Sequence record: PQ850619.1
DNA length: 43,265 bases
Origin: Escherichia phage MarieHeimVoegtlin_Bas70
Direction: 5' to 3' (one strand)
Shown: positions 5,136-41,365 of the stretch, in pieces
Layout: each line of letters begins with the position of its first letter
How positions within the stretch are numbered: the stretch's first letter is position 1
Program-made: the position numbers and the translations under genes
Notes under the pieces: generated by a model
The model's database searches: none
Told to the model about the DNA's origin: nothing
What the model saw: the letters and a program-made list of their open reading frames with translations, nothing else

Positions 5136-5167
5136 TGAATAGTACCCTATTATATTGGGGTGTGCAA
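5136..5167 (-). promoter_or_regulatory. sigma70-like promoter (TTGCAC-N17-TACTAT) with embedded AATAG-N4-CTATT palindrome
   Basis: Read on the minus strand: TTGCAC, 17-nt spacer accccaatataataggg, TACTAT. The 32-bp block is identical to 14240-14271. Confidence 0.55.
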
Positions 5168-14239: not shown

Positions 14240-14271
14240 TGAATAGTACCCTATTATATTGGGGTGTGCAA
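14240..14271 (-). promoter_or_regulatory. sigma70-like promoter (TTGCAC-N17-TACTAT) with embedded AATAG-N4-CTATT palindrome
   Basis: 32 bp identical to 5136-5167. Positioned about 25 nt upstream of the 13888-14214 start codon on the minus strand. Confidence 0.55.
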
Positions 14272-30400: not shown

Positions 30401-30429
30401 ACTATAATAGCTAACTATTCAGGTGTCAA
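30401..30429 (-). promoter_or_regulatory. sigma70-like promoter (TTGACA-N17-TATAGT) with AATAGCTAACTATT palindrome in spacer
   Basis: Minus-strand reading gives TTGACA, 17-nt spacer, TATAGT. Embedded in the 3' end of the 30415-30618 ORF. Confidence 0.55.
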
Positions 30430-32949: not shown

Positions 32950-32978
32950 ACTATAATAGCGAACTATTCACATGTCAA
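32950..32978 (-). promoter_or_regulatory. sigma70-like promoter (TTGACA-N17-TATAGT) with AATAGCGAACTATT palindrome
   Basis: Minus-strand reading gives TTGACA, 17-nt spacer, TATAGT. Divergent from the HTH regulator gene at 33043. Confidence 0.6.
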
Positions 32979-33042
32979 TGGGCTTTTCTAAAATAATTAA
33001 TATGGTACTATTCACATATCAACTGACTAAGGAGTAATTGAC

Positions 33043-36592: not shown

Positions 36593-36621
36593 TTGCACAC
36601 CCCAACATAATAGGTTACTAT
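36593..36621 (+). promoter_or_regulatory. sigma70-like promoter (TTGCAC-N17-TACTAT) with AATAG-N4-CTATT palindrome
   Basis: Reverse-orientation copy of the 5136/14240 promoter block with two mismatches. About 35 nt upstream of the gene at 36656. Confidence 0.55.
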
Positions 36622-36655
36622 TCACTTATCGAAACGAGACATAAGGAATTTAGAA

Positions 36656-37871: not shown

Positions 37872-38014
37872 TGTTATATTGTAACAATAGTTTGGGATTT
37901 TACTGAGTGACTTACGCTGCTACACAGCAGCGTACAACTTTAGATTAGTGTCGTCAAAAAGCGACACTTTCACCAAACGCAACAATCGAAGTGACTATTG
38001 CAGGAGACGCAACA

Positions 38015-38222: not shown

Positions 38223-38251
38223 TTGCGCACTTATATAGAATAGGATACTAT
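38223..38251 (+). promoter_or_regulatory. sigma70-like promoter (TTGCGC-N17-TACTAT) with AATAG-N4-CTATT palindrome
   Basis: TTGCGC, 17-nt spacer, TACTAT. Palindrome AATAGGATACTATT at 38239-38252. Confidence 0.5.
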
Positions 38252-38262
38252 TCATTTACACG

Positions 38263-39634: not shown

Positions 39635-39813
39635 TGGTGCATAGATACGAAAACGACCACGGCGATATGTTTCAGGCCGCGGAAGGGCGCTGGGTCCTAT
39701 ACGAAGACTACGCGGAGCTGGCGCGTAAACTGCGCGAGCTTGCTAAGCAGGTAGTAAACAGTCCGTGCGACTGGAAGACGGATGAATTAGCGCGCGAGAT
39801 TCTGGACCTATGA
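39634..39813 (+). CDS. hypothetical protein (59 aa), tandem paralog B
   Basis: ATG overlapping the upstream TGA. Pattern WVLYEDYAELARKLRELAK parallels the upstream protein. Confidence 0.45.
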   Translation: MVHRYENDHGDMFQAAEGRWVLYEDYAELARKLRELAKQVVNSPCDWKTDELAREILDL

Positions 39814-40103
39814 GCCTTGCAACTGACATCCTGAAACGGAGCGGCCTTGCGCCGCTGTCGCCGAGAGCGAACACACGAATATACAAGCGCCGCCGTAATG
39901 CGCTGTACCCTGAGATTCAGGCCAGACGCAAAGCAGTCCGCGCCTGCGGATTCCAGAACGGGAAGGCTGTGAATCTCGGTGAGTTTAAAACAAAGGAACG
40001 TGCGGCTATCGCTAATCGGTTATTTAATTACTGGAAATCGCTGGGTTATGAAGATATTCCGACGAAACCACAGAGACGACAATACATCTGGCGTCATAAA
40101 TAA
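39810..40103 (+). CDS. hypothetical basic protein (97 aa)
   Basis: ATGA overlap with the upstream gene. R/K-rich. Confidence 0.45.
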   Translation: MSLATDILKRSGLAPLSPRANTRIYKRRRNALYPEIQARRKAVRACGFQNGKAVNLGEFKTKERAAIANRLFNYWKSLGYEDIPTKPQRRQYIWRHK

Positions 40104-40133
40104 ACCGTTATTAAGATAATTCCTAACCGTGCT

Positions 40134-40173
40134 ATCCTCCAGTTACTGCATACTTAATACGCACCTGGAGGAT
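40134..40173 (+). promoter_or_regulatory. hairpin that sequesters the holin Shine-Dalgarno
   Basis: Perfect 9-bp inverted repeat ATCCTCCAG (40134-40142) and CTGGAGGAT (40165-40173). The right arm contains the GGAGG ribosome-binding site of the gene starting at 40179. Confidence 0.4.
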
Positions 40174-40178
40174 TCATC

Positions 40179-40487
40179 TTGGATAAATTTACTGAAACAG
40201 TGACAGGCTGGCTTCTCGCTGCCGCACTAGCCGGAGGGGTAATCGGACTAAGGCAACATAAGTCCGCTATTTCCGGCCCTATCGACGGCTTCTGCTTTAT
40301 TGCAACTGGCTTCACTTGCGCCGTATTTGGCGCACCTCTCGCAGCTCAATGGTTTGGAATCACGGGCGACCGTGAAATCGCAGGCCTGGGCTTCATTATC
40401 GCTATGCTCTGGACGCCTATCTATTCCCGTCTGTCCGGTATCGTCGCCGGAGAATACATCGCACGTCGAGGAGGCCCGGATGAATGA
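40179..40487 (+). CDS. putative holin (three hydrophobic segments)
   Basis: 102 aa. TTG start 8 nt after GGAGG. Hydrophobic segments TGWLLAAALAGGVIGL, FCFIATGFTCAVFGAPLAA, AGLGFIIAMLW. Two genes upstream of the endolysin. Confidence 0.5.
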   Translation: MDKFTETVTGWLLAAALAGGVIGLRQHKSAISGPIDGFCFIATGFTCAVFGAPLAAQWFGITGDREIAGLGFIIAMLWTPIYSRLSGIVAGEYIARRGGPDE

Positions 40488-40752
40488 GTTATTCTGGTTC
40501 TGCGGTATGCTGGCAATCGGAGGCACATCGCTGTTTAATGTGTATCATCCCAGCGTTGACGACGGGCTATTTGGCCGGGTGCTCTATATCCTGACTGCTA
40601 TTGTCTGCGCCGCAGGATGTATCCACCTGTTACAGGGCAGCATGTCTCCGACGCTGCCTGAGACATTAATCACATTAGTTGCGCTGCGCCAGATTCGTCA
40701 GGCGTGGCTGTCATACGGAGGACATAAGCGTGTCTCGAAATATTTCAGATAA
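40480..40752 (+). CDS. small membrane protein (second holin-like or antiholin candidate)
   Basis: ATG at 40480 with AGGAGG Shine-Dalgarno (track ORF starts further upstream at 40300). Two hydrophobic segments. Overlaps the holin stop and the endolysin start. Confidence 0.4.
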   Translation: MNELFWFCGMLAIGGTSLFNVYHPSVDDGLFGRVLYILTAIVCAAGCIHLLQGSMSPTLPETLITLVALRQIRQAWLSYGGHKRVSKYFR

Positions 40753-41218
40753 TGGATTGCATTTCACCGCTGCGTTCGAGGGATTCCGCGGAACTGCATA
40801 CCGCGCTACGCCGAACGAGAAGTACCTGACTATCGGGTACGGGCACTATGGGCCGGACGTAACCCCGGGTAAGACCATCACACCGGGGCAAGGCCTCCTG
40901 TTACTGAATCGCGATATGGCTAAGGCCGTAGCTGCGGTTGATGTGGCGGCACACCATTCGCTGACACAGGCACAGTTCGACGCTGTGTGCGACCTGGTCT
41001 ATAACGCCGGTGCTGGTGTGATTGCAGCTGCTACCGGCACAGGAAAGGCGCTGCGTTCTGGTGACATCGCGACACTGCGGGCTAAACTGGCGCTGTTTAT
41101 CAACCAGAACGGCAAACCGTTACTTGGTCTGCGCCGCCGTACTGCCGGGCGTCTTGCACTGTTTGACGGCAAGCCGTGGCAGGAGGCGGGGGCCATTGGG
41201 CGCGCGGTGAAAGGTTGA
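40729..41218 (+). CDS. endolysin, glycoside hydrolase family 24 lysozyme
   Basis: GTG start at 40729 (track ORF begins 40679). Motifs NGLHFTAAFEGFRGTAYRATPNEKYLTIGYGH, TQAQFDAVCDLVYNAG and C-terminal LLGLRRRTAGRLALF match the phage lysozyme pattern. Confidence 0.75.
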
Positions 41219-41282
41219 CACCTGAGACTAATCCGACGATACTTAAATCACCCCCTGTTCCATACCTCTGCTCTCCAGTTTT

Positions 41283-41315
41283 ATCCCGGCCCTGACCCAG
41301 CCGGGATTTTTTTTA
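41283..41315 (+). terminator. intrinsic terminator
   Basis: atcccggc-cctgaccca-gccgggat hairpin followed by TTTTTTTT, after the endolysin gene. Confidence 0.7.
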
Positions 41316-41336: not shown

Positions 41337-41365
41337 TTGACTATTACCTACGACCCTATTATATT
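41337..41365 (+). promoter_or_regulatory. sigma70-like promoter (TTGACT-N17-TATATT)
   Basis: TTGACT at 41337-41342, 17-nt spacer, TATATT at 41360-41365. About 35 nt upstream of the gene at 41399. Confidence 0.5.

Follow-up and report, generated by a model that had tools for sequence, protein, structure and literature searches.

The lysis genes of Escherichia phage MarieHeimVoegtlin_Bas70 are preceded by a hairpin that pairs the ribosome-binding site of the first of them. Our data point to a compact module in which a putative promoter without a −35 element is nested in the 5′ arm of this Shine-Dalgarno (SD)-sequestering hairpin, with a terminator located downstream. How long a phage infection cycle lasts is set by holin synthesis. 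We see an even chance that the hairpin is a lock of the type known from gene e of phage T4, by which read-through RNA would be silenced while a cassette-specific mRNA would be translated.

The window, by which we mean the whole stretch of 43,265 nucleotides analysed here, is the nearly complete genome of a Kagunavirus (Guernseyvirinae). Its region 39700–41300 shares 99.7% identity with Escherichia phage vB-Eco-KMB35, and matches at 60–95% identity were returned for 130 phage records. The hairpin sits in a 75-nt gap between an upstream gene of 97 amino acids (39810–40103, + strand), which is co-oriented with the lysis cassette and has no assigned function, and the cassette itself. The first lysis gene (40179–40487, + strand) encodes a protein of 102 amino acids with three predicted transmembrane segments. 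This protein matches the PHROG holin family phrog_2359 (E = 4e-29), and its gene is annotated as holin-like in relatives. The initial annotation of this DNA had called it a putative holin, and the family match supports that assignment, but the cassette contains two holin-like genes and the first could be either a holin or an antiholin. The second (40480–40752, + strand) encodes a membrane protein of 90 amino acids that belongs to phrog_2508 (“holin”), has a GGAGG of its own, and its start overlaps the stop codon of the first gene (ATGAATGA). An endolysin of the phage lysozyme type follows (40730–41218, + strand; PF00959, E = 1.9e-26; start as annotated in KMB35). The cassette ends at a predicted intrinsic terminator on the + strand (41283–41314; −13.8 kcal/mol), which consists of ATCCCGGC and GCCGGGAT followed by T8, and a strong promoter is found after this terminator at 41337–41365.

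The TTG at 40179–40181 is the first start codon of the 102-amino-acid ORF and is conserved across Kaguna- and LSPA1-type phages. As the N-terminal MDK encoded from this codon aligns with the ATG-initiated homologues in Dhillonvirus, it can be taken as the true start, which agrees with the TTG start proposed in the initial annotation. The leader also contains AGATAATTCC (40114–40123, + strand), a copy of a GGATAA(A/T)TCC motif that recurs in the lysis-cassette leaders of Kaguna and Jersey phages, where it is positioned directly after the upstream stop codon.

These phages are virulent siphoviruses in which the lysis cassette stands mid-way in a long run of co-oriented small genes. Those upstream are tightly packed and overlap from stop to start, and no predicted terminator was found on the + strand between about 37900 and 40179, so that read-through RNA is expected to enter the cassette. 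With the cassette placed among co-oriented genes, unscheduled translation from such RNA would lead to premature death of the host. We considered whether ribosomes that finish translating the upstream gene could unfold the stem, and rejected this, since the stop codon of that gene (40101–40103) is 31 nt away, which is too far.

The two arms of the hairpin, ATCCTCCAG (40134–40142, + strand) and CTGGAGGAT (40165–40173, + strand), were reported by a repeat finder as 100% complementary and 22 nt apart. They form a stem of 9 bp that includes five G-C pairs. The 3′ arm holds the SD sequence GGAGG (40167–40171, + strand), 7 nt before the TTG, and the 5′ arm is the corresponding anti-SD sequence, overlapping positions 2–6 of a −10-like hexamer. 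Two statements of the initial annotation, that perfect 9-bp arms enclose a 22-nt loop and that the right arm contains the GGAGG of the first lysis gene, are thus borne out by the sequence and the repeat finder. The loop, CAUACUUAAUAC (40143–40164, + strand), is A/U-rich and has a weak 3-bp helix inside. A 48-nt RNA is predicted to fold into the proposed hairpin with −14.7 kcal/mol (z = −3.6). An Rfam search of 39800–40500 returned only STnc500, on the minus strand and with a score of 13.7 bits where the gathering threshold is 44, which is a chance match.

A 9-bp inverted repeat is by itself not unusual, as the window contains nine perfect repeats of this length with loops of 3–40 nt, compared with 7.0 ± 3.0 in dinucleotide shuffles. 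The position over the SD is more distinctive. Among the 82 annotated translation starts of KMB35, this is the sole perfect SD-covering stem of at least 8 bp, and the initiation region of the lysis gene ranks as the fourth most paired of the 82. Of 200 shuffles, 16 (8%) nonetheless contained an SD-covering 9-bp stem at some genomic position. It is the conservation and covariation in relatives that place the hairpin beyond chance.

Conservation was assessed across 117 loci from IMG/VR, metagenomes and GenBank, among which there were 23 different leaders of 84 nt and, when leader and gene were taken together, 61 clean haplotypes. The four-fold degenerate sites of the holin gene had a diversity of 0.386 (58 of 61 variable), the 5′ spacer (40104–40129) 0.103 (10 of 26), and the loop 0.020 (8 of 22), while each arm had a diversity of 0.004 with a single variable position out of nine. 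Among the 61 haplotypes, the 5′ arm is therefore about 100-fold, and the loop about 19-fold, less diverse than neutral sites. Although it has no coding or SD role, the 5′ arm is constrained equally to the arm that carries the SD. The element is constant whichever gene lies upstream of it, the 97-amino-acid ORF or an inserted gene for an HslV-like peptidase. Neither a plain hairpin nor a promoter model requires the loop to be so strongly conserved. A conserved loop could be a functional 5′ untranslated region (UTR), a nuclease site, or the target of a trans-acting factor.

The few substitutions seen in the close relatives mostly preserve or extend the pairing. The sole variant in the 5′ arm, A40141G, occurs in two different backgrounds and keeps a G-U pair. 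The T-C mismatch at 40143/40164 becomes G-C through a change on the 5′ side in haplotypes L026 and L111, and U-A through a change on the 3′ side in the Salmonella phages LSPA1 and TU03, with stems that are lengthened to 11 bp (−20.1 kcal/mol) and 13 bp (−21.6 kcal/mol), respectively. At the other end of the range, haplotype L128 has an A-C mismatch in the stem and its predicted fold is down to −10.1 kcal/mol. A pair is also broken by the change in VT223, in which the gene is a truncated remnant. The predicted stability of the hairpin in close relatives thus extends from −10.1 to −21.6 kcal/mol, a spread of about 11 kcal/mol. Formal covariation within the Kaguna/LSPA1 family was not significant (86.0% of cells paired, compared with 85.9% in shuffles), and these statistics are uninformative here because the element is almost invariant. 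The case for the hairpin is instead based on its diversity relative to neutral sites and on the comparison across lineages. Both show that the hairpin is genuine and that selection on it is strong.

The 5′ edge of the hairpin coincides with a putative promoter. An extended −10-like element, TG-c-TATCCT, occupies 40130–40138 on the + strand, with the TG at 40130–40131, the n at 40132 and the hexamer at 40133–40138. At sigma-70 promoters, transcription usually begins 6–8 nt after the hexamer. This geometry predicts a transcription start at 40144–40146 on the + strand, just beyond the 5′ arm. In the 61 haplotypes the TG and the TATCCT are invariant, and n alone is polymorphic, with C and G both common. 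As a −10 hexamer, TATCCT is weak, and variation is seen in the candidate −35 (TTAAGA, TTAGGA or TTCGGA), which is acceptable in extended −10 promoters. The TGcTATCCT site was not called by a consensus promoter scan, which requires a −35 element, and no promoter is marked at this position in the annotated part of the fBC-Eco01 record. By chance alone, TG-n-TAnnnT is expected roughly once in each kb of a strand; five copies occur on the + strand between 36 and 43 kb. A constitutive promoter at this position would leave the timing of lysis unexplained.

The same position is occupied by similar elements in other lineages, namely TGaTATAGT, TG[t/c]TAATCT, TG[a/c]TAA[t/c]CT and (cgt)TACTAT. Across the lineages, the hexamers are TATCCT, TATAGT, TAATCT, TAACCT and TACTAT. 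TAnnnT is kept in all five lineages and TG in four of the five, with a constant offset from the hairpin. T1, A2 and T6 of the hexamer are constant, and positions 3–5 and n vary. At the level of sequence, this is the pattern of conservation that marks a TGn-extended −10 element for sigma-70. In the window, hexamer positions 2–6 also pair with AGGAT, so that the apparent promoter conservation belongs in part to the hairpin. Pairing cannot explain the conservation of T1, TG and A2, however, because T1, the TG and, in most lineages, A2 lie outside the stem. The hairpin begins at hexamer positions 2–7 in every lineage, and in most of them the 5′ arm ends at index 10–15, either at the predicted +1 (index 13) or no more than about 2 nt from it.

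Three other promoter candidates were rejected. GATAAT at 40115–40120 could be read as a −10 element, but relatives have GATAAA or GATGAT, in which T6 or A4 is lost, whereas TATCCT never varies. Within the loop, TTACTG... and CTTAAT are poor hexamer matches as judged by eye. A 20-nt repeated promoter-like motif, TGAATAGTAnCCTATTATaT, is present in seven copies, none of which is upstream of the holin gene. We found no mapped transcription start in the literature for Kagunavirus, Jerseyvirus or Dhillonvirus, no paper on start sites in Dhillonvirus, and no description of the element in the literature on these phages; it is not mentioned in the Golestan and fBC-Eco01 genome papers. RNA sequencing of Kagunavirus K1B4 sorted genes into coarse classes without 5′-end resolution, and placed the lysozyme among the “middle” genes (PMC12645636).

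The same layout with a different sequence is found ahead of the lysis genes of other phage lineages. In Dhillonvirus, where the homologue of the first lysis protein is 44–50% identical, the leader reads CGTGATATAGTCCCAGTGAGCTAAAACTTACTGGGACTTTTTT(T)ATG. Its predicted hairpin of 12 bp (−19.8 kcal/mol) is followed by a U-tract running right up to the start codon. By sequence it would be a textbook intrinsic terminator, and it carries a terminator annotation in the WF5505 record. When the leaders are aligned on CGTGnTAT, the pairs formed by hexamer positions 4 and 5 change from C-G and C-G in the window to A-U and G-C in Dhillonvirus, and these changes are compensatory. The holin leader of Klebsiella phage KLB22 shares the hairpin layout and has a U-tract, and its record annotates a terminator on the opposite strand over the same stretch. 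Jerseyvirus type A has the shared layout and a U-tract before an unrelated holin family. Jerseyvirus type B has no U-tract, and its inner stem pairs covary among leaders L155, L157 and L159. The U-tracts of the Dhillonvirus, Jerseyvirus type A and Klebsiella versions consist of T6–T7. Common to all versions are the hairpin, a G-rich SD in the 3′ arm and the −10-like element at the 5′ edge, while the U-tract is not universal. The arms in relatives measure 9, 11, 12 and 13 bp and the loops 6–22 nt, with complementarity kept throughout. The lineages compared probably share the ancestry of this leader, and hence are not independent origins. An SD-covering hairpin is absent in the distant holin homologues of Erwinia phage RF1, which has divergent upstream genes, Pectobacterium phage Arno162 and Pantoea phage MED16, and the module is therefore not universal for this holin family.

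Predicted accessibility of the SD depends on where the RNA begins. For RNAs that start at or before 40126, the predicted probability that GGAGG is unpaired is about 0.000, and the predicted energy needed to open 40163–40185 is 11.0–11.6 kcal/mol when transcription starts at 40000 or 40104, and 8.4 kcal/mol from 40126. For RNAs that start at 40139–40148, the predicted probability rises to 0.40–0.45, with an opening energy of 5.6 kcal/mol from 40145. In these folding models, SD accessibility is switched by the position of the RNA 5′ end. A dedicated lysis mRNA would lack the lock, because its predicted start near 40145 lies past the 5′ arm.

A lock of the T4 gene e type would operate as follows. 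Transcripts from the co-oriented upstream genes would enter the cassette with both arms present, and in such RNA the SD of the first lysis gene would be locked into the hairpin. The DNA of the 5′ arm would double as the −10 region of an extended −10 sigma-70 promoter that has no −35 element. RNA polymerase would start near 40145, giving an mRNA that begins in the loop and does not contain the 5′ arm, with the loop serving as the 5′ UTR of this cassette-specific mRNA. The SD of the short mRNA would be free, and the lysis genes would be translated from a transcript extending from about 40145 to the terminator at 41283–41314. The lock would thereby keep the holin from premature or unscheduled synthesis. 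We infer the activity of the promoter and its start position, the occurrence of read-through RNA, and the role of the lock against premature lysis. In the versions with a U-tract, hairpin-containing RNA would be terminated, so that a functional mRNA there must start inside the hairpin.

The initial annotation had interpreted the hairpin as translational throttling of the holin. Sequestration of the SD is upheld by the folding predictions (probability of being unpaired about 0.000, about 11 kcal/mol to open), but a constitutive throttle acting on all holin mRNA is not. According to such a model, every holin mRNA would have both arms, the hairpin and the TTG would together slow synthesis and lengthen the latent period, and the likeness of TGnTATCCT to a promoter would be incidental. 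We consider this unlikely. In its favour, the hairpin is genuine, its occlusion of the SD is conserved, Kaguna- and LSPA1-type phages retain the TTG start, the literature contains no mapped start inside the element, and the promoter scan called nothing at it. There is also a precedent in lambda, where the signals for translation initiation at the holin gene determine when lysis occurs (bioRxiv 10.1101/2025.05.14.654169). However, the nested −10-like element and a start near 40145, as predicted, argue against a throttle on all holin mRNA, which moreover leaves unexplained why the TG and T1 are conserved outside the stem with n variable. The predicted stabilities are a further difficulty. Initiation, as reportedly established by de Smit and van Duin, depends steeply on hairpin stability, and a range of −10.1 to −21.6 kcal/mol would shift expression by orders of magnitude, which fits fine tuning poorly. 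With an SD that is almost never unpaired and costs 11 kcal/mol to open, very little protein would be made at all. The modelled spread of about 11 kcal/mol is more easily reconciled with an on/off lock than with a tuned throttle. Finally, the Dhillonvirus, Jerseyvirus type A and Klebsiella versions look like terminators that abut the start codon, and a functional mRNA there cannot contain them. The mechanism first proposed is partly right, in that sequestering the SD would affect translation of the holin, but probably incomplete, as the lock is likely made transcript-specific by the embedded putative promoter.

The conserved loop raises the question of whether the hairpin is part of the lysis mRNA and is opened late by a trans-acting factor, a small RNA or an endonucleolytic cut in the loop. 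A loop diversity about 19-fold below neutral, which plain hairpin and promoter models do not need, would be accounted for, and CAUACUUAAUAC is A/U-rich, like RNase E or S1 sites. We nevertheless judge such regulated unlocking improbable, given that no candidate factor was identified, that there is no Rfam match, and that the loops of Kaguna, Dhillon and Jersey phages differ in both sequence and length while the architecture is kept. The probability is similarly low that the 22-nt loop is recognised by a factor encoded by the phage or the host, or cut by a specific nuclease, at a defined time, as part of a regulated lysis timer common to the three genera. If true, this would mean that Kagunavirus, Jerseyvirus and Dhillonvirus share a module with swapped sequence, which in these phages is also a terminator and a promoter. 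That the hairpin is a terminator or attenuator, or the decayed remnant of one, which insulates the cassette from upstream transcription with the SD overlap as a by-product, seems to us quite improbable. Canonical stems with T6–T7 do occur at homologous positions in Dhillonvirus, Jerseyvirus type A and KLB22, a terminator is annotated in WF5505 (Dhillonvirus) and, on the opposite strand, in KLB22, and the window retains a partial U-tract, UUCAUCUU. In the window, however, the loop is 22 nt long, the U-tract is interrupted and the terminator scan did not call the hairpin. Jerseyvirus type B is entirely without a U-tract, and it is the inclusion of the SD, not the U-tract, that is common to all versions. 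The arms could also be imagined as a DNA operator, at which a dimeric protein of the phage or the host would regulate the cassette, since they form a perfect palindrome with centres 31 bp apart, or about three helical turns, in an intergenic region that is conserved in its entirety. A40141G argues otherwise, as it keeps the pairing in RNA (G-U) but breaks the symmetry in DNA, and free arm length and spacing with complementarity kept are typical of an RNA structure and not of a protein site; an operator is accordingly very improbable. Fortuitous complementarity between the SD and upstream sequence, with no function, is scarcely credible. The abundance of 9-bp inverted repeats is at shuffle frequency and 8% of shuffles contain an SD-covering 9-bp stem, but chance is effectively refuted by a 5′ arm about 100-fold less diverse than neutral sites, by stem-lengthening and compensatory changes, and by an architecture that is kept across genera.

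The closest parallel to the lock is gene e of phage T4. As described in section 29 of PMC3014915, long early transcripts of gene e fold so as to sequester the ribosome-binding site of the lysozyme, and the transcripts from late promoters, which lie within the 5′ strand of the structure, are without that strand and are translated. The same source describes control like that of gene e for soc, gene 49 and I-TevI (McPheeters et al., 1986; PMC3014915). The phage module resembles gene e in that the ribosome-binding site of a lysis gene would be held in a hairpin of long transcripts, here through a 9-bp stem over GGAGG, and in that a putative promoter lies in the DNA of the 5′ strand of the hairpin; in both, premature lysis would be avoided. 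It also differs from gene e. The T4 late promoter (TATAAATA) is read by gp55, whereas the phage element is of the host sigma-70 extended −10 type. In T4 the locked gene encodes the endolysin, whereas here it encodes a holin or antiholin. The hairpin of related phages, unlike that of gene e, also has a U-tract and is terminator-like. For the promoter itself, a functional precedent is E. coli galP1 (TGcTATGGT, with a poor −35; sequence verified), which shares the TGcTATnnT core with the phage element and is described as an extended −10 promoter that does not depend on a −35 element (PMC3488240). galP1 is experimentally defined and activated by CRP, while the phage element is a putative promoter.

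Other systems share parts of this design. Like the sdi of lambda S, the module places a stem-loop with the SD just upstream of a holin start. The lambda S sdi stem-loop governs access of the ribosome and influences the timing of lysis. The lambda structure partitions initiation between S107 and S105, is included in the late mRNA that is translated and contains no promoter, whereas the phage gene described here has a single start. A dual-start motif is absent from its N-terminus (MDKFTETVTGW), the sole nearby alternative being a GTG at codon 8, which has no SD and lies in a segment that is deleted in the Dhillonvirus homologues. Phage Mu keeps the start site of its mom gene in a hairpin, which the trans-acting RNA-binding protein Com opens. 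Mom is comparable as a potentially harmful late gene with its start site in a hairpin, a likeness that bears only on the rival model of regulated unlocking, and here no Com-like factor or conserved binding motif was identified. The putative terminators before the cassettes of Dhillonvirus, Jerseyvirus type A and KLB22 have the same position, hexamer overlap and SD in the 3′ arm as the hairpin in the window. Intrinsic terminators are characterised by a short loop and an uninterrupted U-tract, and the window version, unlike those of the relatives, has a 22-nt loop and UUCAUCUU after the stem. The hairpin in the window thus probably locks translation without terminating transcription.

The design represents a sensible and testable form of regulation and not a surprise, as its principle is known from T4 gene e. 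Versions of the module that differ in sequence are found across several genera of therapeutic coliphages and in Salmonella phages. If confirmed, the lock would carry the principle of T4 gene e over to phages dependent on the host sigma-70, and it would account for the “terminators” that are annotated against the start codons of holin genes in Dhillonvirus and Jerseyvirus genomes. It would also provide a small and mutable handle for engineering the lysis time of phage-therapy candidates.

The 20-nt motif TGAATAGTAnCCTATTATaT occurs seven times in the window, against an expected 0.03 copies. The copies lie on the plus strand at 5136–5155 and 14240–14259, and on the minus strand at 30402–30421, 32951–32970, 32995–33014, 36605–36624 and 38235–38254. 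Most share the orientation of their neighbouring genes. The copy at 38235–38254 is antisense within a block of small plus-strand genes. Because two of the seven copies lie between a perfect TTGACA and a TATAGT, these two are predicted to be sigma-70 promoters with a common operator-like spacer. Three of the seven also have TGGGGTGTGCAA downstream in common. In a PHIRE analysis of phage fBC-Eco01, the same consensus was listed under “phage promoters” (PMC9825357). The small-gene block also contains the palindrome TGTTATATTGTAACA (37872–37886). Each of its strands resembles an extended −10 element (plus strand, TGTTATATT; minus strand, TGTTACAAT), and the palindrome could be an overlapping divergent promoter pair.

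The lysis cassette is closed by a strong intrinsic terminator at 41283–41314, in which the stem ATCCCGGC/GCCGGGAT is followed by T8 (−13.8 kcal/mol). This hairpin was not called in the terminator scan of the window because its loop is 9 nt long. Downstream of it lies a promoter, TTGACT-17-TATATT (41337–41365), whose spacer has at its 3′-end CCCTATTATAT, the second half of TGAATAGTAnCCTATTATaT.

Canonical terminator hairpins with T6–T7 adjoin the holin start codon itself in Dhillonvirus phages (loci L041–L043, L085–L099, L139 and L144), and likewise in Klebsiella phage KLB22 (L142). In these versions, Shine-Dalgarno-like purines are found only within the 3′ arm of the terminator hairpin. The Dhillonvirus hairpin is annotated as a terminator in database records, which do not address the route of holin expression; the KLB22 record places a terminator on the opposite strand over the same stretch.

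The holin leader contains a GGATAA(A/T)TCC motif, represented in the window by AGATAATTCC (40114–40123), right after the upstream stop codon. Kagunavirus leaders carry it, as do Jerseyvirus leaders of both types (hairpins with and without a U-tract), and in loci L145–L159 it lies ~60–70 nt 5′ of the holin start. Its distance to the TGn element, the putative extended −10, is 6 nt in Kagunavirus compared with ~30 nt in Jerseyvirus. The motif may mark a recombination junction or serve as a binding site for a protein.

An insertion polymorphism was observed at 40103/40104: in many Kagunaviruses (L001, L002, L037 and others), a ~440 bp HslV-like peptidase gene, absent from the window, separates the holin leader from the 97-aa ORF. 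The conserved leader starts immediately 3′ of whichever of the two genes precedes it. Salmonella phage VT223 (L040) carries a truncated remnant (1085–1340) comprising a Kagunavirus-type leader and the first ~25 codons of a holin of that type; a complete leader and holin of the Jerseyvirus type lie downstream of it. The remnant, which lacks the TG and the outermost stem pair, is the scar of a lysis-cassette exchange at these regulatory elements.
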